DNA of 64,000 nt, from positions 35,032,001 to 35,096,000 of the forward strand of contig CM119371.1 in the NCBI GenBank assembly GCA_051294905.1. Direction: 5' to 3'. Positions 3,001-64,000 of this stretch are shown piece after piece (positions within the stretch are counted from its first letter, which is position 1; the number at the start of each line of letters is the position of its first letter). The DNA is from Botryllus schlosseri. Lineage: Eukaryota. The translations under genes and the position numbers were made by a program. Under the pieces are notes generated by a model. That model made no database searches. It had not been told where the DNA came from and worked only from the letters and a program-made list of their open reading frames with translations.

Positions 3001-3256
3001 TGTAACTTTGCGAAAGACGTTGGCCAGGTGATGATAATCGCGCAATTTCTCTGAAAAATAGAGATGAAATTCGACTCGAACTAGACGGTAGAATTGGCTA
3101 AAACTCGGTTCGATTATGCTTTGGGACAAGCCTCGACTCCTGAACATGGTTAAAAGTGGAGCACTTGTCTATGATAGAAATATCGGCGTCTTTAATCCGA
3201 GAGCTATACGTGTAATTTTGCGAAAGACGTTGGTCAGGTGATGATACTCGCGCAAT
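1..3256. repeat. 210-bp tandem satellite array, segment 1 (continues beyond window start)
   Basis: The unit GTTAAAAGTGGAGCACTTGT...CTCGACTCCTG(A/T/C)ACGTG recurs every 210 bp, with occasional 209-bp units and few substitutions. Confidence 0.99.
3244..3256 (+). repeat. LINE target-site duplication, left copy (ATACTCGCGCAAT)
   Basis: Identical 13-mer at 4785-4797. It occurs once in an uninterrupted monomer. Confidence 0.92.
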
Positions 3257-3257
3257 A

Positions 3258-4649
3258 AATTGGGGTGCAAACAGGAGATCTCTCCTCCGCCTATACAGGT
3301 CAGTTATACGATCCATCGTAGATTATGGGATGCCAGCGTATTTTTTTGCCCCTAAGTGCCACATCAACAAAATCGAAGTCGTCCAGAACCAGGCTTTACG
3401 TCTCTGCTGCGGCGCCATGCGCAGTACACCTATTTGCGTACTTGAGGCCTCTTGTAATGAGTTTCCTCTCCATTTGAGGCATAAGTATCTTTGTAGCGTA
3501 TACCGTTGTCATCTTCTTAGACATCCACCCGGATCCCACCCGACGTTAGGACTATTAGAGGATTCATGGGAAGAAATATACAGTCTCACTAAGCCGAATT
3601 TCGTCACGTTCAATATAGTTTCCAAGTCGCCAATCTTGGCGGAATTCAGTGTTCGCCAGCGCTATCCTACTTTTCGAGAGCCGTGGTCGGTTAGCCCACT
3701 AAACGTCCACACGCAACTGTGTGGCGTGATATCCAGACTGGATACCCCACATAAAGTAAATTCTATCTTCAAAGACTTTCTGTTCGAAGTCTGTGACCAA
3801 TATATTGAAGTATACACAGACGGCTCAAAAACGTCCACTGCCACTGGTTACGGTGTTTACATACCCCAGAAGCTAATGAAATATTCGCAAACTTGCTCAC
3901 CATTGAAGTCGGTAATTACTGTTGAATTGGATGCGATCATGTATGCACTTTCATGGATAATAGAGAACGGCTTGAGCACAGACAAATTCGTCATACTTAG
4001 TGATTGCCTCAGCGCAATACAGACCATTGGCGAGCCGCTAGACATGCCTAGTCATATCCTTAATGCAATGTATCCTTATCTTGAACAGATCAAACGGGCA
4101 GGCATCGACGTAGCCATCAGCTGGATACCCAGTCACAGCGGCATTCACGGAAATGAAATTGCGGATGAATTAGCGCGGACAGCAGCCTCTCAACCTCCAC
4201 CTCTTTGGTCACCAACGATTCAGTTTTCAGATGCGAAAAGCGCGATTCGGAAGTCCATCCGATCGCGATGGGACACGGAATACAGAAACAATGAAAAAGG
4301 ATGTCACTATCGAGTTTTTCAAACTTCCATATTCGACCGAATATCGTCAGATGGAATATCGCGCCGGCATGAGAATATTTTGTTTCGCCTTCGTTCCGGT
4401 CATTGCCGGCTGAATGTGCATCTGTTTAAAATTGGGTGTATTGACTCTCCTTTATGTGATTTCTGTTTCGTACCAGACACCGTCGAACATTTTCTTTTGT
4501 CATGTTGTAAATACGCTCACCATAGACGCACGGTAAAACACTATTGTGAGGGACTACATCTTGCGTTCAGTACTTATAACCTTTTAGTTAACCCGCTACT
4601 TTTTACGGCTGTCATCGAATTTGTGGATTCTTGTAACATATTGCTATGA
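3258..4649 (+). pseudogene. 3' part of LINE ORF2 (RT thumb region, RNase H, C-terminal CCHC finger), 5'-truncated
   Basis: The frame is open from the junction (NWGANRRSLLRLYRSVIRSIVDYG precedes the Met at 3330, so that Met is internal). RNase H motifs: YTDGSK, ELDAI, ILSDC, WIPSHSGIHGNEIADELAR. C-terminal RLRSGH...CDFC...DTVEHFLLSC. The endonuclease and RT catalytic core are absent. Confidence 0.92.
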
Positions 4650-4712
4650 TTTTCTCAACCTTTTCATTTGTATTTGTCCTGAATTGACTATTCTTTACGA
4701 TTAACCTTGCAC

Positions 4713-4748
4713 GTGGTGCACCAGACCTTTATCGGTGATATGCGCCAC
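4713..4748 (+). other. Predicted 3' UTR stem-loop of the LINE
   Basis: GTGGTGCA (4713-4720) pairs with TGCGCCAC (4741-4748) with one G:U pair, and there is an inner ACC/GGT stem. It ends 19 nt before the tail. Confidence 0.65.
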
Positions 4749-4767
4749 TTCCATTTTTTACCATCTA

Positions 4768-4785
4768 TAATAATAATAATAATAA
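4768..4785 (+). repeat. (TAA)6 3' tail of the LINE
   Basis: TAATAATAATAATAATAA directly before, and overlapping by one base, the right TSD. Confidence 0.95.
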
Positions 4786-4797
4786 TACTCGCGCAAT
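4785..4797 (+). repeat. LINE target-site duplication, right copy
   Basis: Identical to 3244-3256. Its first bases (ATA) overlap the TAA-tail register, so the boundary is ambiguous by up to 3 nt. Confidence 0.9.
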
Positions 4798-43700: not shown

Positions 43701-46700
43701 CTCGGTTCGATTATGCTTTGGGACAAATCTCGACTCTTGCACGTGGTTAAAAGTGGAGCACTTGTCAATAATAGAAATATCGGCGTCTTTAATCCGAGAG
43801 CTATACGTGTAATTTTGCGAAAGACGTTGGCCAGGTGATGATACTCGCACTATTTCTCTGAAAAGTAGAGATGAAATTCGACTCGAACTAGACGGTAGAA
43901 TTGGCTAAAACTCGGTTCGATTATGCTTTGGGACAAGCCTCGACTCCTGTTCGTGGTTAAAAGTGGAGCACTTGACTATAATAAAAATATCGGCGTCTTT
44001 AATCCGAGAGCTATACGTGTAATTTGGCGAAAGACGTTGGCCAGGTGATGATACTCGCGCTATTTCTCTGAAAAGTAGAGATGAAATTCGACTCGAACTA
44101 GACGGTAGAATTGGCTAAAACTCGGTTCGATTATGCTTTGGGACAAGCCTCGACTCCTGCACGTGGTTAAAAGTGGAGCACTTGTAAATAATAGAAATAT
44201 CGGCGTCTTTAATCCGAGAGCTATACGTGTAATTTTGCGAAAGACGTTGGCCAGGTGATGATACTCGCGCAATTTCTCTGAAAAGTAGAGATGAAATTCG
44301 ACTCGAACTAGACGGTAGAATTGGCTAAAACTAGGTTCGATTATGCTTTAGGACAAGACTCGACTCCTGTACGTGGTTAAAAGTGGAGGACTTGTCTATA
44401 ATAGAAATATCGGCGTCTTTAATCCGAGAGCTATACGAGTAATTTTGCGAAAGACGTTGGTCAGGTGATGATACTCGCGCAATTTCTTTGAAAAGTAGAG
44501 ATGAAATTCGACTCGAACTAGACGGTAGAATTGGCTAAAACTCGGTTCGATTATGCTTTGGGACAAGCCTCGACTCCTGTACGTGGTTAAAAGTGGAGCA
44601 CTTGTCTATGATGGAAATATCGGCGTCTTTAATCCGAGAGCTATACGTGTAACTTTGCGAAAGACGTTTGCCAGGTGATGATAATCGCGCAATTTCTCTG
44701 AAAAGTAGAAATGAAATTCGACTCGAACTAGACGGTAGAATTGGCTAAAACTCGGTTCGATTATGCTTTGGGACAAGCCTCGACTCCTGAACATGGTTAA
44801 AAGTGGAGCACTTGTCTATGATAGAAATATCGGCGTCTTTAATCCGAGAGCTATACGTGTAATTTTGCGAAAGACGTTGGCCAGGTGATGATACTCGCGC
44901 AATTTCTCTGAAAAGTAGAGATGAAATTCGACTCGAACTAGACGGTAGAATTGGCTAAAACTAGGTTCGATTATGCTTTAGGACAAGACTCGACTCCTGT
45001 ACGTGGTTAAAAGTGGAGCACTTGTCTATAATAGAAATATCGGCGTCTTTAATCCGAGAGCTATACGTGTAATTTTGCGAAAGACGTTGGCCAGGTGATG
45101 ATACTCGCGCTATTTCTCTGAAAAGTAGAGATGAAATTCGACTCGAACTAGACGTAAGAATTGGCTAAAACTCGGTTCGATTATGCTTTGGGAAAAATCT
45201 CGACTCCTGCACGTGGTTAAAAGTGGAGCACTTGTCAATAATAGAAATATCGGCGTCTTTAATCCGAGAGCTATACGTGTAATTTTGCGAAAGACGTTGG
45301 CCAGGTGATGATACTCGCGCAATTTCTCTGAAAAGTAGAGATGAAATTCGACTCGAACTAAACGGTAGAATTGGCTAAAACTAGGTTCGATTATGCTTTG
45401 GGACAAGACTCGACTCCTGTACGTGGTTAAAAGTGGAGCACTTGTCTATAATAGAAATATCGGCGTCTTTAATCCGAGAGCTATACGTGTAATTTTGCGA
45501 AAGACGTTGGCCAGGTGATGATACTCGCGCTATTTCTCTGAAAAGTAGAGATGAAATTACACTCGAACTAGACGGTAGAATTGGCTAAAACTCGGTTCGA
45601 TTATGCTTTTGGACAAGCCTCGACTCCTGCACGTGGTTAAAAGTGGAGCACTTGTCAATAATAGAAATATCGGCGTCTTTAATCCGAGAGCTATACGTGT
45701 AATTTTGCGAAAGACGTTGGCCAGGTGATGATACTCGCGCAATTTCTCTGAAAAGTAGAGGTGAAATTCGACTCGAACTAGACGGTAGAATTGGCTAAAA
45801 CTCGGTTCGATTTTGCTTTGGGACAAGCCTCGACTCCTGCACGTGGTTAAAAGTGGAGCACTTGTAAATAATAGAAATATCGGCGTCTTTAATCCGAGAG
45901 CTATACGTGTAATTTTGCGAAAGACGTTGGCCAGGTGATGATACTCGCGCAATTTCTCTGAAAAGTTGAGATGAAATTCGACTCGAACTAGACGGTAGAA
46001 TTGGCTAAAACTAGGTTCGATTATGCTTTGGAACAAGACTCGACTCTTGTACGTGGTTAAAAGTGGAGGACTTGTCTATAATAGAAATATCGGCGTCTTT
46101 AATCCGAGAGCTATACGTGTAATTTTGCGAAAGACGTTGGTCAGGTGATGATACTCGCGCAATTTCTCTGAAAAGTAGAGATGAAATTCGACTCGAACTA
46201 GACGGTAGAATTGGCTAAAACTCGGTTCGATTATGCTTTGGGACAAGCCTCGACTCCTGTACGTGGTTAAAAGTGGAGCACTTGTCTATGCTGGAAATAT
46301 CGGCGTCTTTAATCCGAGAGCTATACGTGTAACTTTGCGAAAGACGTTTGCCAGGTGATGATAATCGCGCAATTTCTCTGAAAAGTAGAGATGAAATTCG
46401 ACTCGAACTAGACGGTAGAATTGGCTAAAACTCGGTTCGATTATGCTTTGGGACAAGCCTCGACTCCTGAACATGGTTAAAAGTGGAGCACTTGTCTATG
46501 ATAGAAATATCGGCGTCTTTAATCCGAGAGCTATACGTGTAATTTTGCGAAAGACGTTGGCCAGGTGATGATACTCGCGCAATTTCTCTGAAAAGTAGAG
46601 ATGAAATTCGACTCGAACTAGACGGTAGAATTGGCTAAAACTAGGTTCGATTATGCTTTAGGACAAGACTCGACTCCTGTACGTGGTTAAAAGTGGAGCA

Positions 46701-49700
46701 CTTGTCTATAATAGAAATATCGGCGTCTTTAATCCGAGAGCTATACGTGTAATTTTGCGAAAGACGTTGGCCAGGTGATGATACTCGCGCTATTTCTCTG
46801 AAAAGTAGAGATGAAATTCGACTCGAACTAGACGGAAGAATTGGCTAAAACTCGGTTCGATTATGCTTTGGGACAAATCTCGACTCCTGCACGTGGTTAA
46901 AAGTGGAGCACTTGTCAATAATAGAAATATCGGCGTCTTTAATCCGAGAGCTATACGTGTAATTTTGCGAAAGACGTTGGCCAGGTGATGATACTCGCGC
47001 AATTTCTCCGAAAAGTAGAGATGAAATTCGACTCGAACTAAACGGTAGAATTGGCTAAAACTAGGTTCGATTATGCTTTGGGACAAGACTCGACTCCTGT
47101 ACGTGGTTAAAAGTGGAGCACTTGTCTATAATAGAAATATCGGCGTCTTTAATCCGAGAGCTATACGTGTAATTTTGCGAAAGACGTTGGCCAGGTGATG
47201 ATACTCGCGCTATTTCTCTGAAAAGTAGAGATGAAATTACACTCGAACTAGACGGTAGAATTGGCTAAAACTCGGTTCGATTATGCTTTTGGACAAGCCT
47301 TGACTCCTGCACGTGGTTAAAAGTGGAGCACTGGTCACTAATAGAAATATCGGCGTCTTTAATCCGAGAGCTATACGTGTAATTTTGCGAAAGACGTTGG
47401 CCAGGTGATGATACTCGCGCAATTTCTCTGAAAAGTAGAGGTGAAATTCGACTCGAACTGGACGTTAGAATTGGCTAAAACTCGGTTCGGTTATGCTTTG
47501 GGACAAGCCTCGACTCCTGAACGTGGTTAAAAGTGAAGCACTTGTATATGATAGAAATATCGGCGTCTTTAATCCGAGAGCTATACGTGTAACTTTGCGA
47601 AAGACGTTGGCCAGGTGATGATACTCGCGCAATTTCTCTGAAAAGTAGAGATGAAATTCGACTCGAACTAGATGGTAGAATTGGCTAAAACTAGGTTCGA
47701 TTATGCTTTGGGACAAGACTCGACTCCTGTACGTGGTTAAAAGTGGAGCACTTGTCTTTAATAGAAATATCGGCGTCTTTAATCCGAGAGCTATACGTGT
47801 AATTTTGCGAAAGACGTTAACCAGGTGATGATACTCGCGCAATTTCTCTGAAAAGTAGAGATGAAATTCGACTCGAACTAGACGGTAGAATTGGCTAAAA
47901 CTAGGTTCGATTATGCTTTGGGACAAGACTCGAATCCTGTACGTGGTTAAAAGTGGAGCATTTGTATATAATAGAAATATCGGCGTCTTTAATCCGAGAG
48001 CTATACGTGTAATTTTGCGAAAGACGTTGGCCAGGTGATGATACTCGCGCTATTTCTCTGAAAAGTAGAGATGAAATTCGACTCGAACTAGACGGTAGAA
48101 TTGGCTAAAACTCGGTTCTATTATGCTTTGGGACAAGCCTCGACTCCTGTTCGTGGTTAAAAGTGGAGCACTTGTCTATGATAGAAATATCGGCGTCTTA
48201 AATCCGAGAGCTATACGTGTAATTTTGCGAAAGACGTTGGTCAGGTGATGATACTCGCGCAATTTCTCTGAAAAGTAGAGATGAAATTCGACTCGAACTA
48301 GACGGTAGAATTGGCTAAAACTAGGTTCGATTATGCTTTGGGACAAGACTCGACTCCTGTACGTGGTTAAAAGTGGAGCATTTGTATATAATAGAAATAT
48401 CGGCGTCTTTAATCCGAGAGCTATACGTGTAATTTTGCGAAAGACGTTGGCCAGGTGATGATACTGGCGCTATTTCTCTGAAAAGTAGAGATGAAATTCG
48501 ACTCGAACTAGACGGTAGAATTGGCTAAAACTCGGTTCTATTATGCTTTGGGAAGAGCCTCGACTCCTGTTCGTGGTTAAAAGTGGAGCACTTGTCTATA
48601 ATAGAAATATCGGCGTCTTTAATCCAAGAGCTATACGTGTAATTTGGCGAAAGACGTTGGCCAGGTGATGATACTCGCGCTATTTCTCTGAAAAGTAGAG
48701 ATGAAATTCGACTCGAACTAGACGGTAGAATTGGCTAAAACTCGGTTCGATTATGCTTTGGGACAAGCCTCGACTCCTGCACGTGGTTAAAAGTGGAGCA
48801 CTTGTCAATAATAGAAATATCGGCGTCTTTAATCCGAGAGCTATACGTGTAATTTTGCGAAAGACGTTTGCCAGGTGATGATAATCGCGCAATTTCTCTG
48901 AAAAGTAGAGATGAAATTCGACTCGAACTAGACGGTAGAATTGGCTAAAACTAGGTTCGATTATGCTTTGGGACAAGACTCGACTCCTGTACGTGGTTAA
49001 AAGTGGAGCACTTGTATATAATAGAAATATCGGCGTCTTTAATCCGAGAGCTATACGTGTAATTTTGCGAAAGACGTTGGCCAGGTGATGACACTCGCGC
49101 TATTTCTCTGAAAAGTAGAGATGAAATTCGACTCGAACTAGACGGTAGAATTGGGTAAAACTCGGTTCGATTATGCTTTGGGACAAGCCTCGACTCCTGT
49201 TCGTGGTTAAAAGTGGAGCACTTGTCTATAATAGAAATATCGGCGTCTTTAATCCGAGAGCTATACGTGTAATTTGGCGAGAGACGTTGGCCAGGTGATG
49301 ATACTCGCGCTATTTCTCTGAAAAGTAGAGATGAAATTCGACTCGAACTAGACTGTAGAATTGGCTAAAACTCGGTTCGATTATGCTTTGGGACAAGCCT
49401 CGACTCCTGTTTGTGGTTAAAAGTGGAGCACTTGACTATAATAGAAATATCGGCGTCTTTAATCCGAGAGCTATACGTGTAATTTGGCGAAAGACGTTGG
49501 CCAGGTGATGATACTCGCGCTATTTTTCTGAAAAGTAGAGATGAAATTCGACTCGAACTAGACGGAAGAATTGGCTAAAACTCGGTTCGATTATGCTTTG
49601 GGACAAGCCTCGACTCCTGCACGTGGTTAAAAGTGGAGCACTTGTCTATAATAGAAATATCGGCGTCTTTAATCCGAGAGCTATACGTGTAATTTTGCGA

Positions 49701-52624
49701 AAGACGTTGGCCAGGTGATGATACTCGCGCAATTTCTCTGAAAAGTAGAGATGAAATTCGACTCGAACTGGACGGTAGAATTGGCTAAAACTAGGTTCGA
49801 TTATGCTTTGGGACAAGCCTCGACTCCTGTACGTGGTTAAAAGTGGAGCACTTGTCTATAATAGAAATATCGGCGTCTTTAATCCGAGAGCTATACGTGT
49901 AATTTTGCGAAAGACGTTGGTCAGGTGATGATACTCGCGCAATTTCTCTGAAAATTAGAGATGAAATTCGACTCGAACTAGACGGTAGAATTGGCTAAAA
50001 CTCGGTTCGATTATGCTTTGGGACAAGCCTCGACTCCTGTACGTGAATAAAAGTGGAGCACTTGTCTATGATAGAAATATCGGCGTCTTTAATCCGAGAG
50101 CTATACGTGTAACTTTGCGAAAGACGTTTGCCAGGTGATGATAATCGCGCAATTTCTCTGAAAAGTAGAGATGAAATTCGACTCGAACTAGACTGAAGAA
50201 TTGGCTAAAACTCGGTTCGATTATGCTTTGGGACAAGCCTCGACTCCTGAACATGGTTAAAAGTGGAGCACTTGTCTATGATAGAAATATCGGCGTCTTT
50301 AATCCGAGAGCTATACGTGTAATTTTGCGAAAGACGTTGGCCAGGTGATGATACTCGCGCAATTTCTCTGAAAAGTAGAGATGAAATTCGACTCGAACTA
50401 GACGGTAGAATTGGCTAAAACTAGGTTCGATTATGCTTTAGGACAAGACTCGACTCCTGTACGTGGTTAAAAGTGGAGCACTTGTCTATAATAGAAATAT
50501 CGGCGTCTTTAATCCGAGAGCTATACGTGTAATTTTGCGAAAAACGTTGGCCAGGTGATGATACTCGCGCTATTTCTCTGAAAAGTAGAGATGAAATTCG
50601 ACTCGAACTAGACTGAAGAATTGGCTAAAACTCGGTTCGATTATGCTTTGGGACAAATCTCGACTCTTGCACGTGGTTAAAAGTGGAGCACTTGTCAATA
50701 ATAGAAATATCGGCGTCTTTAATCCGAGAGCTATACGTGTAATTTTGCGAAAGACGTTGGCCAGGTGATGATACTCGCGCTATTTCTCTGAAAAGTAGAG
50801 ATGAAATTCGACTCGAACTAGACGGTAGAATTGGCTAAAACTCGGTTCGATTATGCTTTGGGACAAGCCTTGACTCCTGTTCGTGGTTAAAAGTGGAGCA
50901 CTTGACTATAATAGAAATATCGGCGTCTTTAATCCGAGAGCTATACGTGTAATTTGGCGAAAGACGTTGGCCAGGTGATGATACTCGCGCTATTTCTCTG
51001 AAAAGTAGAGATGAAATTCGACTCGAACTAGACGGTAGAATTGGCTAAAACTCGGTTCGATTATGCTTTGGGACAAGCCTCGACTCCTGCACGTGGTTAA
51101 AAGTGGAGCACTTGTAAATAATAGAAATATCGGCGTCTTTAATCCGAGAGCTATACGTGTAATTTTGCGAAAGACGTTGGCCAGGTGATGATACTCGCGC
51201 AATTTCTCTGAAAAGTAGAGATGAAATTCGACTCGAACTAGACGGTAGAATTGGCTAAAACTAGGTTCGATTATGCTTTGGGACAAGACTCGACTCCTGT
51301 ACGTGGTTAAAAGTGGAGGACTTGTCTATAATAGAAATATCGGCGTCTTTAATCCGAGAGCTATACGTGTAATTTTGCGAAAGACGTTGGTCAGGTGATG
51401 ATACTCGCGCAATTTCTCTGAAAAGTAGAGATGAAATTCGACTCGAACTAGACGGTAGAATTGGCTAAAACTCGGTTCGATTATGCTTTGGGACAAGCCT
51501 CGACTCCTGTACGTGGTTAAAAGTGGAGCACTTGTCTATGATGGAAATATCGGCGTCTTTAATCCGAGAGCTATACGTGTAACTTTGCGAAAGACGTTTG
51601 CCAGGTGATGATAATCGCGCAATTTCTCTGAAAAGTAGAGATGAAATTCGACTCGAACTAGACGGTAGAATTGGCTAAAACTCGGTTCGATTATGCTTTG
51701 GGACAAGCCTCGACTCCTGCACGTGGTTAAAAGTGGAGCACTTGTAAATAATAGAAATATCGGCGTCTTTAATCCGAGAGCTATACGTGTAATTTTGCGA
51801 AAGACGTTGGCCAGGTGATGATACTCGCGCAATTTCTCTGAAAAGTAGAGATGAAATTCGACTCGAACTAGACGGTAGAATTGGCTAAAATTAGGTTCGA
51901 TTATGCTTTGGGACAAGACTCGACTCCTGTACGTGGTTAAAAGTGGAGGACTTGTCTATAATAGAAATATCGGCGTCTTTAATCCGAGAGCTATACGTGT
52001 AATTTTGCGAAAGACGTTGGTCAGGTGATGATACTCGCGCAATTTCTCTGAAAAGTAGAGATGAAATTCGACTCGAACTAGACGGTAGAATTGGCTAAAA
52101 CTCGGTTCGATTATGCTTTGGGACAAGCCTCGACTCCTGTACGTGGTTAAAAGTGGAGCACTTGTCTATGATGGAAATATCGGCGTCTTTAATCCGAGAG
52201 CTATACGTGTAACTTTGCGAAAGACGTTTGCCAGGTGATGATAATCGCGCAATTTCTCTGAAAAGTAGAGATGAAATTCGACTCGAACTAGACGGTAGAA
52301 TTGGCTAAAACTAGGTTCGATTATGCTTTGGGACAAGACTCGACTCCTGTACGTGGTTAAAAGTGGAGCACTTGTCTATAATAGAAATATCGGCGTCTTT
52401 AATCCGAGAGCTATACGTGTAATTTTGCGAAAGACGTTGGTCAGGTGATGATACTCGCGCAATTTCTCTGAAAAGTAGAGATGAAATTCGACTCGAACTA
52501 GACGGTAGAATTGGCTGAAACTCGGTTCGATTATGCTTTGGGACAAGCCTCGACTCCTGTACGTGAATAAAAGTGGAGCACTTGTCTATGATAGAAATAT
52601 CGGCGTCTTTAATCCGAGAGCTAT

Positions 52625-52629
52625 ACGTG
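52625..52629 (+). repeat. LTR element TSD, left copy (ACGTG)
   Basis: Repeated at 56776-56780. Removing the element and one copy restores the satellite sequence CTATACGTGTAACTTTGCG. Confidence 0.95.
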
Positions 52630-52832
52630 TGTGGTGATCCGCAATTAGGCAATAATTACTTTTCTCTGATTAGTTACGTTGTACAGTACAGTGTCGCCTT
52701 ATCGTTACCGTGTCATTCTATTCTCTTCTGTTCTGCTGTCAGTTGTGTTCTATGTTGCTTAAAGCCACATTGGTTACCTTTGCTTTAATAAAGCTTCAGT
52801 TAGTCATTCAATGCAATAGTCAGTTTACGACA
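52630..52832 (+). repeat. 5' LTR (203 bp)
   Basis: TGTGGTGATCC...TTTACGACA. Identical by eye to 56573-56775. Confidence 0.97.
52739..52744 (+). promoter_or_regulatory. Candidate initiator (Inr) and transcription start in the 5' LTR
   Basis: TCAGTT matches the TCAKTY Inr consensus and lies upstream of the LTR AATAAA. Other matches exist (52713, 52796, 52820), so the start site is tentative. Confidence 0.45.
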
Positions 52833-52833
52833 A

Positions 52834-52849
52834 TTTAAGCAACATAGAA
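52834..52849 (+). other. Primer-binding-site position, complementary to the element's own LTR (putative self-priming PBS)
   Basis: TTTAAGCAACATAGAA, 1 nt after the LTR's terminal CA, is the exact reverse complement of TTCTATGTTGCTTAAA at 52748-52763. It does not begin with TGG as a canonical tRNA PBS does. Confidence 0.8.
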
Positions 52850-52851
52850 TT

Positions 52852-55800
52852 ATGGCAGAAAGGATTCTGAAACCAGACAAGCTCGATATCAGTCCGGACT
52901 CCGTCTCTGCTGAAAAACAGTACAAGCATTGGAAGAAGACCTTCGATAATTTTCTTTCATCATTTGATCAAGATACACAGATTGACAAGCTGAAGATCTT
53001 AACGAATTTCGTGTCGTCGTCTGTCTATTCCTATTTTGAAGAAAGTTCGACTTACGATACCGCAATAGAACTTCTCGACAAAATTTATATCAAGCAAAAG
53101 AACGAAATCTTCGTCCGCCACATGCTAGTAACCCGTATTCAGAAGCCCGAAGAGACGATCGAGGAATTTTCCCGCGCCTTGGCAGATCTAGCGAAAGATT
53201 GCACATTCAAGACTCTCTCGGCGGAAGATCATCGCAAGGAGTCCATCCGCGACGCTTTCGTTACTGGTCTCCGATCAAACGTTATCAGACAGAGATTATT
53301 AGAAAGTGACGGGGCTGTAACCCTCGAAATGGCGATCTCAAAAGCCCGCTCATTAGAATTCGCCCAGCGAAGCTCTAGTATCTATTGCAGCACTCCATGT
53401 TCATCTGTCGGCGTCGAACCGCTGGAAAAATCTTTGAATCCTGAAGTCGAACTATCATCCGCAGAAACTCACAGTCGACTCAACGCAATGAGCAAAACAA
53501 TCAAACCTAATCGGAAGTGCTTTTTTTGCGGTCAGTCATTCCACTCCCGATATAAATGTCCAGCGAAACGGAGCGAGTGTGGCTATTGTGGAGCCCTAGG
53601 TCATTATGAGGTGGTTTGCATGAGAAAGGCCACCGACAACAGGAGAACAGTAACTGCAATGATCTCATACTTCAGCGCCATCGGAGTACCCAAATGTCTC
53701 ATAAAAGCAAGAATCGTGGTTAAGATCGGCTGCCACATAACATTTGCTTTAATCGACTCCGGTTCCGCGGAAAGCTTCATAAGCACTGCATACGCCAACG
53801 AAATTGACCTGAAATCAACTCCGTACTCCTCTACGGTTACATTTGCTTCCAAATCCCATTCCCGCAAGATTGAAGAACTCTACAGACCAGACATTCTTGT
53901 AAACGAAACGAAATATACGGAATTCCCTCTTAAAGGAATGGAAGATTTGTGCGCTGATGTGGTGCTTGGTCTCGATTTCATGAACTTGCATAAACGAGTC
54001 ATTTTCAATATGGACGGAGATAGAGATACCTTGGAACTCCCTCGAGATCAGAAGTACAGTGTATGCGGAGTTGCTCAAGCGTGTGTCGAAGCACCGCAAA
54101 TTTTCAAGTTTATGACACCGAATTGTAAACCGATTGCCACTAAATCCAGAAGATACAGCGAAGCCGATCTACATTTCATTAAAGCGGAAGTTGCGAAACT
54201 CGAGAAGGAAGGAATCATCGAGCCGTCCTCATCGCCTTGGCGAGCACAGGTTCTTGTTGTAAATGACGGTCGACACAAGAAGCGCATGGTCATCGACTTC
54301 TCTCAGACGGTCAACAGGTACACCTTACTAGACGCCTATCCTTTACCAAGGATCGATGACCAAGTCAACAACATCGCCCGTTTCAAAGTTTTCAGTACGT
54401 TAGATCTGAAGTCCGCGTATTATCAAGTGGCTCTATCACCTGATGATCGTCCGTATACGGCATTCGAAGCCGCTGGAAATCTTTACCAATACCGTCGATT
54501 GCCATTTGGAGTCACCAACGGAGTTTCGGCATTCCAAAGAATAATAGACAACGTCATAAAAGACAACAAGCTCACTGGCACCTTCGCTTATCTGGATAAT
54601 ATTACTGTTTGCGGTATGGATAAGGACGACCACGATCGGAATCTCGACGCGTTTCTCAATGCTGCTCAGCGATTCAGCCTCACTTTCAATCATTCGAAGT
54701 CGATCATCCGTTCTACGGAAATAGACTTGCTCGGTTATCGCGTGTCGCATGGCGTGATCAAACCGGACCCAGAAAGACTAAAGCCGTTAATCGATTTATT
54801 GCCGCCACGCAACAACCCAGAACTAAAACGAGTGTGTGGCATGTTTGCCTACTATGCCAAATGGTTGCCCAACTTTTCCGACAAAATCCGTCCTTTGTAT
54901 TCAGTCGAAAAATTTCCGCTTTCCGAAAATGCATCTATCGCATTTAACGATTTAAAACGCGAGTTAGTTGACGCGTCTCTTGGTAGGATCGACGAGACAA
55001 GTCCGTTCACAATAGAGTGTGATGCTTCTAATGCAGCCATTGCAGCTATCCTTAGTCAAAACGGTCGACCGGTCGCGTTCATGTCAAAAGCACTATCGCC
55101 AAGTGAAATACGCTACTCCTCTGTTGAGAAAGAAGCGTCCTCAATTATCGCGGCAGTTCGTAAATGGGCTCATTTTTTACATGGCAGACATTTCACTCTT
55201 GTTACTGACCAGAGATCTGTCGCGTTTATGTTTGACGGCAAATCTAAAGGTAAAATCAAAAATACCAAAATCCAACTGTGGCGTGTCGAACTTGGTCAAT
55301 TTTCGTATGATATCGTACACAAACCGGGGGCACTGAATGTTGCGGCTGATATGTTTTCGCGGACCACATCTTCGTATTGCGCATCGATCTCACCCTGTGA
55401 GTTGGGTTCTAATCTAAATCGCATACACGACACTCTGGGTCATCCAGGAGTCACAAGGCTGCATCATTTCGTTCGTTCGAAAAATCTCTCGTTCTCCCTA
55501 AATGACGTCCGTGAGACCTGCGCTCGTTGCCGCATTTGTGCTCAAATCAAACCAAATTTTTACAAATGCAATCCGCAAGTGCTTGTGAAAGCAACGAAAC
55601 CTTGGGAAAGAATCAACGTAGACTTCAAAGGGCCTTTGAAATCTAACAAATCCCCTTTCATGTTCGTTGTCATAGACGAATATAGTCGTTTTCCGTTCGC
55701 CTTTCCATGTCGCAACACTTCCGCGCTAACCGTCGTTTCGTGTTTGTCGACACTATTCGCTGTTTTTGGACTTCCGGGATACGTTCACAGTGACCGAGGC

Positions 55801-56172
55801 ACCGCTTTCGTGTCCAAGGAAGTCAAGGATTATTTACATTCTCGCGGGGTTGCAACTAGCTTCACTACTCCTTACCACCCAACAGGAAATTCGCAGTGCG
55901 AACGCCTTAATCAAACATTATGGCGAACCATCAAACTTATTTTGAAATCAACCGGGGTCTCAGAATCATGTTGGGCTGACGCCCTTCCTCATGCGCTACA
56001 TTCAGTTCGATCGCTACTTTGCACGTCAACTAATTCAACACCGCATGACCGATTTTTTTCCTTTCCAAGAAAAAGTATGGTGGGGAATAGCGTGCCATCC
56101 TGGCTATTGACACCGGGGCCAGTTTTCTTACGCAAATTCGTCAGAAACAAGGGCGACGAACTATGTTCTTAG
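52852..56172 (+). CDS. Gag-Pol polyprotein (gag with two CCHC knuckles, aspartic protease, RT, RNase H, integrase), ending at a probable premature TAG
   Basis: 1106-aa ORF. Two CX2CX4HX4C knuckles (53518-53619). Protease LIDSGS. RT motifs SPW, LDLKSAYYQV, LPFG, YLDN. RNase H motifs CDAS, EKE, TDQ, ADMFSR. Integrase HDTLGH...CRIC, VDFKGP, HSDRG, GNSQCER. Confidence 0.95.
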   Translation: MAERILKPDKLDISPDSVSAEKQYKHWKKTFDNFLSSFDQDTQIDKLKILTNFVSSSVYSYFEESSTYDTAIELLDKIYIKQKNEIFVRHMLVTRIQKPEETIEEFSRALADLAKDCTFKTLSAEDHRKESIRDAFVTGLRSNVIRQRLLESDGAVTLEMAISKARSLEFAQRSSSIYCSTPCSSVGVEPLEKSLNPEVELSSAETHSRLNAMSKTIKPNRKCFFCGQSFHSRYKCPAKRSECGYCGALGHYEVVCMRKATDNRRTVTAMISYFSAIGVPKCLIKARIVVKIGCHITFALIDSGSAESFISTAYANEIDLKSTPYSSTVTFASKSHSRKIEELYRPDILVNETKYTEFPLKGMEDLCADVVLGLDFMNLHKRVIFNMDGDRDTLELPRDQKYSVCGVAQACVEAPQIFKFMTPNCKPIATKSRRYSEADLHFIKAEVAKLEKEGIIEPSSSPWRAQVLVVNDGRHKKRMVIDFSQTVNRYTLLDAYPLPRIDDQVNNIARFKVFSTLDLKSAYYQVALSPDDRPYTAFEAAGNLYQYRRLPFGVTNGVSAFQRIIDNVIKDNKLTGTFAYLDNITVCGMDKDDHDRNLDAFLNAAQRFSLTFNHSKSIIRSTEIDLLGYRVSHGVIKPDPERLKPLIDLLPPRNNPELKRVCGMFAYYAKWLPNFSDKIRPLYSVEKFPLSENASIAFNDLKRELVDASLGRIDETSPFTIECDASNAAIAAILSQNGRPVAFMSKALSPSEIRYSSVEKEASSIIAAVRKWAHFLHGRHFTLVTDQRSVAFMFDGKSKGKIKNTKIQLWRVELGQFSYDIVHKPGALNVAADMFSRTTSSYCASISPCELGSNLNRIHDTLGHPGVTRLHHFVRSKNLSFSLNDVRETCARCRICAQIKPNFYKCNPQVLVKATKPWERINVDFKGPLKSNKSPFMFVVIDEYSRFPFAFPCRNTSALTVVSCLSTLFAVFGLPGYVHSDRGTAFVSKEVKDYLHSRGVATSFTTPYHPTGNSQCERLNQTLWRTIKLILKSTGVSESCWADALPHALHSVRSLLCTSTNSTPHDRFFSFPRKSMVGNSVPSWLLTPGPVFLRKFVRNKGDELCS

Positions 56173-56520
56173 GTCGAACTTCTTGAAGCCAACCCGACTT
56201 ACGCACGTGTTCGTTTTCCTAACGGCCGCGAGTCCAACGTCTCACTCAACGATTTGGCCCGTTTTCCTACTGGAGAAGAAACACCGTCGACTAATCCTGA
56301 AACGAAACAAGCTGAACCTTGTTCTGTTGATGTCGATGGCCACGAGCCAATTCGCGAAGTTTCTAACGTTGAGTTGAAGTCATCTGATGAAGAGCCTCAA
56401 GAATCTAACCATTCAGAGGATGTACCAGATGATTCGAGTAGAAATCTAGACGTCGAGCTTCGGCGTTCAACTAGAGTTAGGCGCCAGCCGGAACGGTATG
56501 GTAATTTTGTTAGTCATTGA
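56173..56520 (+). pseudogene. In-frame continuation of the integrase C-terminus beyond the TAG (115 codons)
   Basis: Same frame as gag-pol: VELLEANPTYARVRFPNGRESNVSLNDLARFP, then an acidic linker, then LRRSTRVRRQPERYGNFVSH*. The basic RRSxR..P tail is typical of Gypsy integrase ends. Confidence 0.85.
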
Positions 56521-56559
56521 TATTTTTGTGTCATTTTTATATGTGAATTTACAAAATGC

Positions 56560-56572
56560 AAGGGGGGTAGAA
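56560..56572 (+). other. Polypurine tract (plus-strand primer)
   Basis: AAGGGGGGTAGAA abuts the TG of the 3' LTR. Confidence 0.9.
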
Positions 56573-56775
56573 TGTGGTGATCCGCAATTAGGCAATAATT
56601 ACTTTTCTCTGATTAGTTACGTTGTACAGTACAGTGTCGCCTTATCGTTACCGTGTCATTCTATTCTCTTCTGTTCTGCTGTCAGTTGTGTTCTATGTTG
56701 CTTAAAGCCACATTGGTTACCTTTGCTTTAATAAAGCTTCAGTTAGTCATTCAATGCAATAGTCAGTTTACGACA
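56573..56775 (+). repeat. 3' LTR (203 bp)
   Basis: Direct repeat of 52630-52832, preceded by the polypurine tract and followed by the TSD. Confidence 0.97.
56730..56735 (+). terminator. Polyadenylation signal AATAAA in the 3' LTR (5' LTR copy at 52787-52792)
   Basis: AATAAA 40 nt before the LTR end, within the small dyad GCTTT-AAT-AAAGC. Confidence 0.65.
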
Positions 56776-56780
56776 ACGTG
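56776..56780 (+). repeat. LTR element TSD, right copy (ACGTG)
   Basis: Matches 52625-52629. Confidence 0.95.
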
Positions 56781-59700
56781 TAACTTTGCGAAAGACGTTT
56801 GCCAGGTGATGATAATCGCGCAATTTCTCTGAAAAGTAGAGATGAAATTCGACTCGAACTAGACGGTAGAATTGGCTAAAACTCGGTTCGATTATGCATT
56901 GGGACAAGCCTCGACTCCTGAACATGGTTAAAAGTGGAGCACTTGTCTATGATAGAAATATCGGCGTCTTTAATCCGAGAGCTATACGTGTAACTTTGCG
57001 AAAGACGTTTGCCAGGTGATGATAATCGCGCAATTTCTCTGAAAAGTAGAGATGAAATTCGACTCGAACTAGACGGTAGAATTGGCTAAAACTCGGTTCG
57101 ATTATGCTTTGGGACAAGCCTCGACTCCTGAACATGGTTAAAAGTGGAGCACTTGTCTATGATAGAAATATCGGCGTCTTTAATCCGAGAGCTATACGTG
57201 TAATTTTGCGAAAGACGTTGGCCAGGTGATGATACTCGCGCAATTTCTCTGAAAAGTAGAGATGAAATTCGACTCGAACTAGACGGTAGAATTGGCTAAA
57301 ACTAGGTTCGATTATGCTTTAGGACAAGACTCGACTCCTGTACGTGGTTAAAAGTGGAGCACTTGTCTATAATAGAAATATCGGCGTCTTTAATCCGAGA
57401 GCTATACGTGTAATTTTGCGAAAAACGTTGGCCAGGTGATGATACTCGCGCTATTTCTCTGAAAAGTAGAGATGAAATTCGACTCGAACTAGACTGAAGA
57501 ATTGGCTAAAACTCGGTTCGATTATGCTTTGGGACAAATCTCGACTCTTGCACGTGGTTAAAAGTGGAGCACTTGTCAATAATAGAAATATCGGCGTCTT
57601 TAATCCGAGAGCTATACGTGTAATTTTGCGAAAGACGTTGGCCAGGTGATGATACTCGCGCTATTTCTCTGAAAAGTAGAGATGAAATTCGACTCGAACT
57701 AGACGGTAGAATTGGCTAAAACTCGGTTCGATTATGCTTTGGGACAAGCCTTGACTCCTGTTCGTGGTTAAAAGTGGAGCACTTGACTATAATAGAAATA
57801 TCGGCGTCTTTAATCCGAGAGCTATACGTGTAATTTGGCGAAAGACGTTGGCCAGGTGATGATACTCGCGCTATTTCTCTGAAAAGTAGAGATGAAATTC
57901 GACTCGAACTAGACGGTAGAATTGGCTAAAACTCGGTTCGATTATGCTTTGGGACAAGCCTCGACTCCTGCACGTGGTTAAAAGTGGAGCACTTGTAAAT
58001 AATAGAAATATCGGCGTCTTTAATCCGAGAGCTATACGTGTAATTTTGCGAAAGACGTTGGCCAGGTGATGATACTCGCGCAATTTCTCTGAAAAGTAGA
58101 GATGAAATTCGACTCGAACTAGACGGTAGAATTGGCTAAAACTAGGTTCGATTATGCTTTGGGACAAGACTCGACTTCTGTACGTGGTGAAAAGTGGAGG
58201 ACTTGTCTATAATAGAAATATCGGCGTCTTTAATCCGAGAGCTATACGTGTAATTTTGCGAAAGACGTTGGTCAGGTGATGATACTCGCGCAATTTCTCT
58301 GAAAAGTAGAGATGAAATTCGACTCGAACTAGACGGTAGAATTGGCTAAAACTCGGTTCGATTATGCTTTGGGACAAGCCTCGACTCCTGTACGTGGTTA
58401 AAAGTGGAGCACTTGTCTATGATGGAAATATCGGCGTCTTTAATCCGAGAGCTATACGTGTAACTTTGCGAAAGACGTTTGCCAGGTGATGATAATCGCG
58501 CAATTTCTCTGAAAAGTAGAGATGAAATTCGACTCGAACTAGACGGTAGAATTGGCTAAAACTAGGTTCGATTATGCTTTGGGACAAGACTCGACTCCTG
58601 TACGTGGTTAAAAGTGGAGCACTTGTCCATAATAGAAATATCGGCGTCTTTAATCCGAGAGCTATACGTGTAATTTTGCGAAAGACGTTGGTCAGGTGAT
58701 GATACTCGCGCAATTTCTCTGAAAAGTAGAGATGAAATTCGACTCGAACTAGACGGTAGAATTGGCTGAAACTCGGTTCGATTATGCTTTGGGACAAGCC
58801 TCGACTCCTGTACGTGGTTAAAAGTGGAGCACTTGTCTATAATAGAAATATCGGCGTCTTTAATCCGAGAGCTATACGTGTAACTTTGCGAAAGACGTTT
58901 GCCAGGTGATGATAATCGCGCAATTTCTCTAAAAAGTAGAGATGAAATTCGACTCGAACTAGACGGTAGAATTGGCTAAAACTCGGTTCGATTATGCTTT
59001 GGGACAAGCCTCGACTCCTGAACATGGTTAAAAGTGGAGCACTTGTCTATGATAGAAATATCGGCGTCTTTAATCCGAGAGCTATACGTGTAATTTTGCG
59101 AAAGACGTTGGCCAGGTGATGATACTCGCGCAATTTCTCTGAAAAGTAGAGATGAAATTCGACTCGAACTAGACGGTAGAATTGGCTAAAACTAGGTTCG
59201 ATTATGCTTTAGGACAAGACTCGACTCCTGTACGTGGTTAAAAGTGGAGCACTTGTCTATAATAGAAATATCGGCGTCTTTAATCCGAGAGCTATACGTG
59301 TAATTTTGCGAAAGACGTTGGCCAGGTGATGATACTCGCGCCATTTCTCTGAAAAGTAGAGATGAAATTCGACTCGAACTAGACTGAAGAATTGGCTAAA
59401 ACTCGGTTCGATTATGCTTTGGGACAAATCTCGACTCTTGCACGTGGTTAAAAGTGGAGCACTTGTCAATAATAGAAATATCGGCGTCTTTAATCCGAGA
59501 GCTATACGTGTAATTTTGCGAAAGACGTTGGCCAGGTGATGATACTCGCGCTATTTCTCTGAAAAGTAGAGATGAAATTCGACTCGAACTAGACGGTAGA
59601 ATTGGCTAAAACTCGGTTCGATTATGCTTTGGGACAAGCCTTGACTCCTGTTCGTGGTTAAAAGTGGAGCACTTGACTATAATAGAAATATCGGCGTCTT

Positions 59701-62700
59701 TAATCCGAGAGCTATACGTGTAATTTGGCGAAAGACGTTGGCCAGGTGATGATACTCGCGCTATTTCTCTGAAAAGTAGAGATGAAATTCGACTCGAACT
59801 AGACGGTAGAATTGGCTAAAACTCGGTTCGATTATGCTTTGGGACAAGCCTCGACTCCTGCACGTGGTTAAAAGTGGAGCACTTGTAAATAATAGAAATA
59901 TCGGCGTCTTTAATCCGAGAGCTATACGTGTAATTTTGCGAAAGACGTTGGCCAGGTGATGATACTCGCGCAATTTCTCTGAAAAGTAGAGATGAAATTC
60001 GACTCGAACTAGACGGTAGAATTGGCTAAAACTAGGTTCGATTATGCTTTGGGACAAGACTCGACTTCTGTACGTGGTGAAAAGTGGAGGACTTGTCTAT
60101 AATAGAAATATCGGCGTCTTTAATCCGAGAGCTATACGTGTAATTTTGCGAAAGACGTTGGTCAGGTGATGATACTCGCGCAATTTCTCTGAAAAGTAGA
60201 GATGAAATTCGACTCGAACTAGACGGTAGAATTGGCTAAAACTCGGTTCGATTATGCTTTGGGACAAGCCTCGACTCCTGTACGTGGTTAAAAGTGGAGC
60301 ACTTGTCTATGATGGAAATATCGGCGTCTTTAATCCGAGAGCTATACGTGTAACTTTGCGAAAGACGTTTGCCAGGTGATGATAATCGCGCAATTTCTCT
60401 GAAAAGTAGAGATGAAATTCGACTCGAACTAGACGGTAGAATTGGCTAAAACTAGGTTCGATTATGCTTTGGGACAAGACTCGACTCCTGTACGTGGTTA
60501 AAAGTGGAGCACCTGTCCATAATAGAAATATCGGCGTCTTTAATCCGAGAGCTATACGTGTAATTTTGCGAAAGACGTTGGTCAGGTGATGATACTCGCG
60601 CAATTTCTCTGAAAAGTAGAGATGAAATTCGACTCGAACTAGACGGTAGAATTGGCTGAAACTCGGTTCGATTATGCTTTGGGACAAGCCTCGACTCCTG
60701 TACGTGGTTAAAAGTGGAGCACTTGTCTATAATAGAAATATCGGCGTCTTTAATCCGAGAGCTATACGTGTAACTTTGCGAAAGACGTTTGCCAGGTGAT
60801 GATAATCGCGCAATTTCTCTAAAAAGTAGAGATGAAATTCGACTCGAACTAGACGGTAGAATTGGCTAAAACTCGGTTCGATTATGCTTTGGGACAAGCC
60901 TCGACTCCTGAACATGGTTAAAAGTGGAGCACTTGTCTATGATAGAAATATCGGCGTCTTTAATCCGAGAGCTATACGTGTAATTTTGCGAAAGACGTTG
61001 GCCAGGTGATGATACTCGCGCAATTTCTCTGAAAAGTAGAGATGAAATTCGACTCGAACTAGACGGTAGAATTGGCTAAAACTAGGTTCGATTATGCTTT
61101 AGGACAAGACTCGACTCCTGTACGTGGTTAAAAGTGGAGCACTTGTCTATAATAGAAATATCGGCGTCTTTAATCCGAGAGCTATACGTGTAATTTTGCG
61201 AAAGACGTTGGCCAGGTGATGATACTCGCGCCATTTCTCTGAAAAGTAGAGATGAAATTCGACTCGAACTAGACTGAAGAATTGGCTAAAACTCGGTTCG
61301 ATTATGCTTTGGGACAAATCTCGACTCTTGCACGTGGTTAAAAGTGGAGCACTTGTCAATAATAGAAATATCGGCGTCTTTAATCCGAGAGCTATACGTG
61401 TAATTTTGCGAAAGACGTTGGCCAGGTGATGATACTCGCGCTATTTCTCTGAAAAGTAGAGATGAAATTCGACTCGAACTAGACGGTAGAATTGGCTAAA
61501 ACTCGGTTCGATTATGCTTTGGGACAAGCCTTGACTCCTGTTCGTGGTTAAAAGTGGAGCACTTGACTATAATAGAAATATCGGCGTCTTTAATCCGAGA
61601 GCTATACGTGTAATTTGGCGAAAGACGTTGGCCAGGTGATGATACTCGCGCTATTTCTCTGAAAAGTAGAGATGAAATTCGACTCGAACTAGACGGTAGA
61701 ATTGGCTAAAACTCGGTTCGATTATGCTTTGGGACAAGCCTCGACTCCTGCACGTGGTTAAAAGTGGAGCACTTGTAAATAATAGAAATATCGGCGTCTT
61801 TAATCCGAGAGCTATACGTGTAATTTTGCGAAAGACGTTGGCCAGGTGATGATACTCGCGCAATTTCTCTGAAAAGTAGAGATGAAATTCGACTCGAACT
61901 AGACGGTAGAATTGGCTAAAACTAGGTTCGATTATGCTTTGGGACAAGACTCGACTCCTGTACGTGGTTAAAAGTGGAGGACTTGTCTATAATAGAAATA
62001 TCGGCGTCTTTAATCCGAGAGCTATACGTGTAATTTTGCGAAAGACGTTGGTCAGGTGATGATACTCGCGCAATTTCTCTGAAAAGTAGAGATGAAATTC
62101 GACTCGAACTAGACGGTAGAATTGGCTAAAACTCGGTTCGATTATGCTTTGGGACAAGCCTCGACTCCTGTACGTGGTTAAAAGTGGAGCACTTGTCTAT
62201 GATGGAAATATCGGCGTCTTTAATCCGAGAGCTATACGTGTAACTTTGCGAAAGACGTTTGCCAGGTGATGATAATCGCGCAATTTCTCTGAAAAGTAGA
62301 GATGAAATTCGACTCGAACTAGACGGTAGAATTGGCTAAAACTAGGTTCGATTATGCTTTGGGACAAGACTCGACTCCTGTACGTGGTTAAAAGTGGAGC
62401 ACTTGTCTATAATAGAAATATCGGCGTCTTTAATCCGAGAGCTATACGTGTAATTTTGCGAAAGACGTTGGTCAGGTGATGATACTCGCGCTATTTCTCT
62501 GAAAAGTAGAGATGAAATTCGACTCGAACTAGACGGTAGAATTGGCTGAAACTCGGTTCGATTATGCTTTGGGACAAGCCTCGACTCCTGTACGTGGTTA
62601 AAAGTGGAGCACTTGTCTATAATAGAAATATCGGCGTCTTTAATCCGAGAGCTATACGTGTAACTTTGCGAAAGACGTTTGCCAGGTGATGATAATCGCG

Positions 62701-64000
62701 CAATTTCTCTAAAAAGTAGAGATGAAATTCGACTCGAACTAGACGGTAGAATTGGCTAAAACTCGGTTCGATTATGCTTTGGGACAAGCCTCGACTCCTG
62801 AACATGGTTAAAAGTGGAGCACTTGTCTATGATAGAAATATCGGCGTCTTTAATCCGAGAGCTATACGTGTAATTTTGCGAAAGACGTTGGCCAGGTGAT
62901 GATACTCGCGCAATTTCTCTGAAAAGTAGAGATGAAATTCGACTCGAACTAGACGGTAGAATTGGCTAAAACTAGGTTCGATTATGCTTTAGGACAAGAC
63001 TCGACTCCTGTACGTGGTTAAAAGTGGAGCACTTGTCTATAATAGAAATATCGGCGTCTTTAATCCGAGAGCTATACGTGTAATTTTGCGAAAGACGTTG
63101 GCCAGGTGATGATACTCGCGCCATTTCTCTGAAAAGTAGAGATGAAATTCGACTCGAACTAGACTGAAGAATTGGCTAAAACTCGGTTCGATTATGCTTT
63201 GGGACAAATCTCGACTCTTGCACGTGGTTAAAAGTGGAGCACTTGTCAATAATAGAAATATCGGCGTCTTTAATCCGAGAGCTATACGTGTAATTTTGCG
63301 AAAGACGTTGGCCAGGTGATGATACTCGCGCTATTTCTCTGAAAAGTAGAGATGAAATTCGACTCGAACTAGACGGTAGAATTGGCTAAAACTCGGTTCG
63401 ATTATGCTTTGGGACAAGCCTCGACTCCTGTTCGTGGTTAAAAGTGGAGCACTTGACTATAATAGAAATATCGGCGTCTTTAATCCGAGAGCTATACGTG
63501 TAATTTGGCGAAAGACGTTGGCCAGGTGATGATACTCGCGCTATTTCTCTGAAAAGTAGAGATGAAATTCGACTCGAACTAGACGGTAGAATTGGCTAAA
63601 ACTCGGTTCGATTATGCTTTGGGACAAGCCTCGACTCCTGCACGTGGTTAAAAGTGGAGCACTTGTAAATAATAGAAATATCGGCGTCTTTAATCCGAGA
63701 GCTATACGTGTAATTTTGCGAAAGACGTTGGCCAGGTGATGATACTCGCGCAATTTCTCTGAAAAGTAGAGATGAAATTCGACTCGAACTAGACGGTAGA
63801 ATTGGCTAAAACTAGGTTCGATTATGCTTTGGGACAAGACTCGACTCCTGTACGTGGTTAAAAGTGGAGGACTTGTCTATAATAGAAATATCGGCGTCTT
63901 TAATCCGAGAGCTATACGTGTAATTTTACGAAAGACGTTGGTCAGGTGATGATACTCGCGCAATTTCTCTGAAAAGTAGAGATGAAATTCGACTCGAACT
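56776..64000. repeat. 210-bp tandem satellite array, segment 3 (continues beyond window end), largely a 9-mer higher-order repeat
   Basis: Same monomer, resuming in register after the LTR element. Variant patterns recur every 1890 bp. Confidence 0.99.

Follow-up and report, generated by a model that had tools for sequence, protein, structure and literature searches.

What the third catalytic Asp of reverse transcriptase (RT), the last residue of the YxDD motif, does is a long-standing question. The residue hardly ever varies; Ty1 and Ty3 can carry out the chemistry without it, yet they need it to transpose. A Ty3/Gypsy element in a 64,000-nucleotide stretch of the Botryllus schlosseri genome (the window) carries Asn at this position, which raises the question of whether its polymerase is damaged or is a natural form of the enzyme. 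The original prediction allowed for both, a single G>A lesion in this copy or a lineage-wide YxDN polymerase, and its reading of the motif was confirmed: TAT CTG GAT AAT at 54589-54600 encodes YLDN in frame within the open reading frame (ORF) 52804-56172, aligned with YLDD of Ty3 RT, in place of the canonical YxDD typical of other Gypsy clades. The upstream Asp in LDLKSAY, described as intact, is indeed present. The codon at 54598-54600 is covered by contigs of four independent runs from four studies, none of which has another letter there. The element has the following parts.

52630-56775, plus strand: whole Ty3/Gypsy element, 4146 bp, with ends TG...CA
52630-52832, plus strand: 5' LTR, 203 bp, with no difference from the 3' LTR
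56573-56775, plus strand: 3' LTR, 203 bp
52625-52629 (left) and 56776-56780 (right), plus strand: target-site duplication (TSD) ACGTG, 5 bp
52748-52763, plus strand: LTR segment complementary to the primer-binding site, the predicted self-primer, followed by a conserved RCC
52787-52792, plus strand: AATAAA, likely poly(A) signal
52834-52849, plus strand: primer-binding site (PBS), 1 nt past the LTR, without a TGG start
52852-56172, plus strand: single gag-pol ORF, stopping at an in-frame stop private to the window copy
53518 and 53578, plus strand: two CCHC knuckles in the gag-pol ORF
53755, plus strand: protease DSG in the gag-pol ORF
54232-54249, plus strand: clade signature SPWRAQ, whose R and Q are absent from other Gypsy RTs
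54403-54405, plus strand: first catalytic Asp of RT, in LDLKSAY, which begins at 54400
54502-54525, plus strand: RT motif B, PFGVTNGV, a candidate permissive background; in other Gypsy RTs it mostly ends in P
54589-54600, plus strand: RT motif C, YLDN, with Asn for the second Asp at 54598-54600
54604-54606, plus strand: Thr at +2 past motif C, a candidate permissive residue
55021, 55132, 55207 and 55348, plus strand: RNase H acidic residues
within the gag-pol ORF: integrase, with spacing D-57-D-35-E
56173-56520, plus strand: remaining 115 codons, the integrase tail beyond the in-frame stop at 56170-56172
56558-56572, plus strand: polypurine tract (PPT)

Direct LTRs with TG...CA ends, the TSD and the PPT are hallmarks of Ty3/Gypsy, and the domain order by Pfam is gag-PR-RT-RH-IN. 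A Pfam scan of 52852-56169, which leaves the last 115 codons outside, contained no chromodomain. The in-frame stop was absent in all 13 sister copies in which its place was located. Among solved structures Ty3 RT was the best sequence match (E 1.5e-50); an alignment-based AlphaFold model gave an RT fold (pLDDT 85) with motif C at the hairpin turn between two strands, and CaMV and Ty3 RT ranked top when this model was compared by fold.

The host sequence that the element interrupts is a 210-bp satellite, possibly centromeric, which covers nearly all of positions 1-64000, with copies 95-99% alike in 44000-64000. To the right of the element lies an apparent higher-order repeat of ~1890 bp (9 units), and the G skew is steady. 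The satellite also contains a 5'-truncated LINE piece, likely of the I group, at 3247-4788, with a 466-codon open frame bearing RNase H (Pfam), a (TAA)n tail and a TSD of ~13 bp. In runs labelled as two other organisms (X15-X17), 64-73% of the words of the element were present and the part compared was 98-99% identical, which may reflect a mixed sample, a close relative or horizontal transfer.

Sister copies in the same genome distinguish a lesion from an inherited state. Among the matches listed, 18 of the 19 other copies at ≥84% RT identity read YLDN with the codon AAT, the remaining one being too broken to read at the motif, and the Leu codon beside AAT varies between close copies (CTG or CTC). 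The sisters and the wider homologues described below are therefore not all YLDD: the former read YLDN and the latter mix DN and DD. Lone switches of single copies do occur, with one YLDN among the 4 copies of an Asp family and one YLDD among the 13 of an Asn family, but AAT in the sister copies and in the four runs leaves a private lesion or sequencing error with practically no chance of explaining the window. YLDN is the fixed state of the window element's family. Such single copies of opposite state include L083 and L125, one with YLDD among the members of an Asn family, the other with YLDN, and identical LTRs, among those of an Asp family.

The search of the B. schlosseri genome gave at least 150 matches, of which 100 loci were taken for analysis, with close copies and longer open frames preferred. 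Together with the window these 101 loci comprised 58 YLDN, 39 YLDD and 4 other or unreadable motifs, Asn being encoded by AAT (45) or AAC (15). The 84 loci with a stop-free RT-RNase H grouped into 12 families, six with Asn and six with Asp, each almost uniform for its residue. The Asn families are young, with recent insertions at many loci: 21 of 38 full-length Asn copies (of the 101 loci) have identical LTRs and 33 have LTRs at least 99% identical, and identical LTRs were found in 15 of 25 full-length Asp copies. We then compared coding differences, counting as shared those present in two or more copies, which went through replication. Within RT-RNase H of the window family, the shared differences were 16 synonymous and 0 non-synonymous, so that this Asn enzyme is under purifying selection. 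Judged by such counts, this selection is as strong as in the Asp families: four Asn families had 105 synonymous and 19 non-synonymous shared differences, five Asp families 85 and 17, and private differences were far less skewed (188 to 163 and 120 to 133, respectively).

The state extends well beyond this genome. The best 120 of 1138 homologues comprised 104 DN, 15 DD and 1 NN, with Asn in matches from the trematodes Trichobilharzia and Clonorchis, the shrimp Palaemon and the coral Pocillopora, bearing out the original suggestion that YLDN recurs in invertebrate elements, and with Asp in matches from Ischnura, Armadillidium and Apostichopus. To lessen bias, we also took the best 150 representatives after clustering at 50% identity, which split at an identity gap into 99 clade proteins covering the motif and 103 other Gypsy RT domains in 49 proteins. 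The clade representatives had 53 DN, 43 DD and 3 other motifs, so nearly only Asp or Asn stands at the last position, whereas the other domains had 102 DD, no DN and one that did not align. WRxQ of the SPWRAQ signature was found in 91 of the 99 clade members and none of the 103 other domains; Thr at +2 was found in 73 of the 99, with none listed among the 103. Metagenome loci (n=80) gave 57 DN, 19 DD and 4 other, and a search for relatives among viral contigs found none. The YLDN state belongs to a metazoan Ty3/Gypsy clade marked by SPWRAQ. The lineage-wide natural YxDN of the original prediction is upheld by the sister copies, the selection on the family and the DN representatives.

To follow the history of the residue, trees were built with the motif residue masked and without a chromovirus reference. 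A branch with full support separates the clade from other Gypsy RTs. In the RT-only tree all 48 Asn rows fall inside a 72-row group and the 24 rows outside it are all Asp, which makes Asp the likely ancestral residue of the last motif position, although the node confining Asn to this subclade has a modest 82% SH-aLRT. A 122-row tree requires 12 Asp/Asn changes (shuffled mean 19.6), of which at least 3 are forced by strong branches, and contains a 47-row all-Asn group spanning deep divergence. A 31-row bootstrap tree forces at least 5 changes and rejects a single Asn clade (AU p 2e-5), which is not a clean test because its rows were selected after the first tree to include switches. Taken together, the trees indicate that Asn and Asp were exchanged several times within the clade.

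These observations make it very probable that YLDN is fixed in the window family and that this family is part of a Ty3/Gypsy clade, widespread in animals, whose RT bears Asp or Asn and likely works with both. Conservation in the catalytic core suggests that the Asn RT is likely active: the first two catalytic Asp are invariant in the relatives compared, 101 with Asn and 21 with Asp, and so is the fingers Arg in the 101 Asn rows. The two retained Asp would bind the catalytic metals, and the last motif position would need a side chain of the size of Asp or Asn rather than its charge. Yeast mutants suggest the same. In the accessible text of PMC5371799, Ty3 D151N and D213N abolish synthesis, and D214N polymerises with low processivity and does not transpose; in that of PMC2148107, Ty1 D211N keeps in vitro polymerase with a 223-fold lower kpol and no transposition, D211E is inactive, and D211N regains 5-10% through RNase H suppressors. 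The statement that such Ty mutants retain some polymerase activity is accordingly sound. RNase H inactivation as a Ty1-like suppressor was rejected for the clade, whose Asn and Asp members alike retain the acidic residues of RNase H at 94-100%.

The clade-wide substitutions WRAQ, NGV of motif B, Thr at +2 and TDQ of RNase H might compensate for the loss of rate or processivity that blocks Ty1 and Ty3. These residues are candidates, shared by descent and only enriched. The motif B Gly (G573) occurs in 46 of 53 Asn rows and 21 of 43 Asp rows, and Thr or Ser at +2 in 46 of 53 and 25 of 43, an enrichment that reflects shared descent as much as function. Among the 21 nearest Asp/Asn pairs no column tracks the switch, the best other column scoring 8 vs 1 of 21. 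The RNase H motif at 55204-55212 is TDQ in 96-100% of the clade and TDH in five other Gypsy rows; TDQ may have to do with tolerating Asn or with cleaving the primer.

The PBS was likewise unusual. As originally noted, it is self-complementary: the 16 nt of 52834-52849 pair perfectly with LTR positions 52748-52763, compared with a mean of 6.3 and a maximum of 11 in 300 shuffled LTRs, and the PBS-LTR region folds at z = -3.2. Among full-length copies, 36 of the 38 with Asn and 21 of the 25 with Asp have a PBS match of at least 10 nt to the own LTR; some of the copies lacking it are boundary miscalls or deletions, and TGG starts the PBS in none of the 63. As controls, 17 of 20 other Gypsy loci of the genome had callable LTRs; all showed a self-match of 4-6 nt, and 15 of the 17 start with TGG. 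Across families the own LTR is the longest match to the PBS, or ties for it, in 11 of 12, and the PBS complement covaries with the LTR. The helix is 12-20 bp long and begins 1-2 nt past the LTR end; its pairs 1-11 are kept in all 11 families examined, with both sides changed at most positions, and one two-sided change was seen within a family. In metagenomes, 13 of 13 full-length elements (12 Asn, from three assemblies, and 1 Asp; 10 elements come from one assembly, two of these apparently duplicates) show a self-match of 10-17 nt. By analogy with Tf1, the likely primer of minus-strand DNA in these elements is their own RNA. In many cases an initiator-like T(C/T)AGT is located 11-12 nt ahead of the end of the helix, a distance near the length of the Tf1 primer, which is 11 nt.

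In 8 of 12 families A(A/T)TAAA lies within the LTR segment that pairs with the PBS, and in 10 of 11 this segment is followed by RCC. This overlap of the primer segment with the poly(A) hexamer, seen in L050, L062, L068, L072, L091, L105, L114 and L123, means that the helix may also hide the signal of the 5' LTR. Hiding it could conceivably be the only role of the helix, with priming by something else, and three RNA runs of low depth inside the element (3-6% of reads examined) showed no 5' pile-up to mark a transcript start. Among the listed runs that contain the element, none is registered as RNA. Most LTR reads (52 and 16) continue past 52832 into unrelated sequence, pointing to an LTR copy elsewhere in a transcribed host locus. 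We regard this explanation as unlikely, since the hexamer lies outside the helix in two families, the window family included, the helix starts just where a primer must sit, and TGG starts the PBS in none of the 63 copies but is usual in the other Gypsy elements of the genome. The primer role and the hiding role may both hold.

Two further explanations concern the Asn itself. It could be an adaptation to self-priming, the two traits together defining a clade, as the original prediction proposed; the PBS is self-complementary in all six Asn families of this genome and in all 12 full-length Asn elements from three other assemblies. But Asp copies carry the same PBS (21 of 25 here, and the one in the metagenomes) and the Asn rows are not one clade, which refutes a one-to-one link and makes the adaptation quite unlikely, though self-priming could still be a precondition for Asn. 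Since the PBS type occurs with both residues it marks the clade rather than the Asn state: self-priming is a separate clade trait, independent of Asp or Asn, and a better definition of the clade rests on the PBS together with other RT residues, the switching taking place within it. The PBS comparison covers elements with nucleotide sequence, the basal all-Asp rows being proteins only. Alternatively, the Asn families could have a crippled polymerase and be copied in trans by the RT of Asp families, with Pol maintained for the sake of its remaining domains. The B. schlosseri genome harbours six Asp families of the clade, so that help in trans is possible in principle, and the yeast Asn mutants fail to transpose, with the large loss of kpol in Ty1 (PMC2148107 and PMC5371799, in their accessible parts). 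Against this stand the complete conservation of the fingers Arg and of both remaining catalytic Asp in the 101 Asn rows, the deep divergence of the 47-row all-Asn group, selection on RT-RNase H equal to that of the Asp families, and the distance of the nearest Asp family, only 54-58% identical to the window family; we consider such copying very unlikely. Rather than any of these, we lean somewhat towards a fuller account of the natural Asn enzyme, in which changes to the polymerase site would have made the clade able to do without the third carboxylate, separately from nematode BEL/Pao, and the clade would then have toggled between Asp and Asn many times across animal phyla while fully mobile; the permissive features would be clade-wide residues of the fingers, motif B and the neighbourhood of motif C, and the helix used for self-priming would conceal the 5' poly(A) signal as well.

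A clade that switches between Asp and Asn offers natural matched enzymes for probing the role of the third Asp, with sisters 70-76% identical, and a short list of residues that possibly allow Asn. If YxDN is annotated as a sign of an inactive RT, half of the clade's families, which are young and abundant, would be misjudged.

In size the window element presumably matches Cigr-1 (245-bp LTRs, 3.6-kb ORF). It shares with the Cigr-1/Mag lineage, as described in the accessible parts of PMC6238403 and PMC3286476, a single ORF of ~1200 codons, short LTRs, a 5-bp TSD and two CCHC knuckles. The clade is probably already named, perhaps as Cigr-1 or a MolGy clade (MolGy1/2 or others), a comparison made by description (PMC6238403, in part). 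The Mag elements described for the mosquito Culex differ in having a PBS for tRNA Ser, Leu or Arg, against no TGG start in the 63 copies here. Compared by description, Saci-2/lennie do not fit in their 4-bp TSD and tRNA primers (PMC12471100, accessible text), nor do Kuafuorterviruses, with an xADD motif and 5-6 kb (PMC11673190, accessible text). The accessible parts of PMC6934838, PMC3670739 and PMC8220671 contain nothing on the window clade. Our search, to which Repbase, GyDB and subscription journals were external, found no paper reporting YxDN in Ty3/Gypsy or switching within a clade, and no animal self-priming clade of this kind was found in the literature searched; natural YxDN was known before in BEL/Pao, and Asn in Gypsy with Asp/Asn switching is apparently unreported.

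Tf1/Tf2, Tj1 and the Tf1/sushi group resemble the window clade in having a PBS complementary to their own LTR and no tRNA site (PMC4600332, accessible text). In contrast to them, the window clade has a helix of 12-20 bp, usually with the poly(A) hexamer and then RCC, and consists of compact animal elements, 4-4.3 kb long, that carry two zinc knuckles. For Asn itself, the natural counterpart is YVDN in Cer7-Cer12 of C. elegans and in the hookworm Atlas virus, both BEL/Pao (PMC554778 and PMC9094657, accessible parts); the activity of these enzymes is called undetermined in that part of PMC554778. The nematode BEL/Pao (Belpaoviridae) likewise have a natural Asn for the second Asp in apparently intact elements, but their YVDN is described there as a fixed lineage feature, whereas the window clade alternates Asp and Asn. 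BEL/Pao is another superfamily, so that its Asn arose independently of the window clade. Its triple Cys-His gag, BEL-type RT and, in Atlas, env are not found in the window element, which has two CCHC knuckles, a Gypsy-type RT-RH and, at 4.1 kb, no room for env. The closest laboratory parallels are Ty1 D211N and Ty3 D214N, the same substitution at the same position; these mutants do not transpose, whereas the natural Asn families show young insertions and purifying selection.
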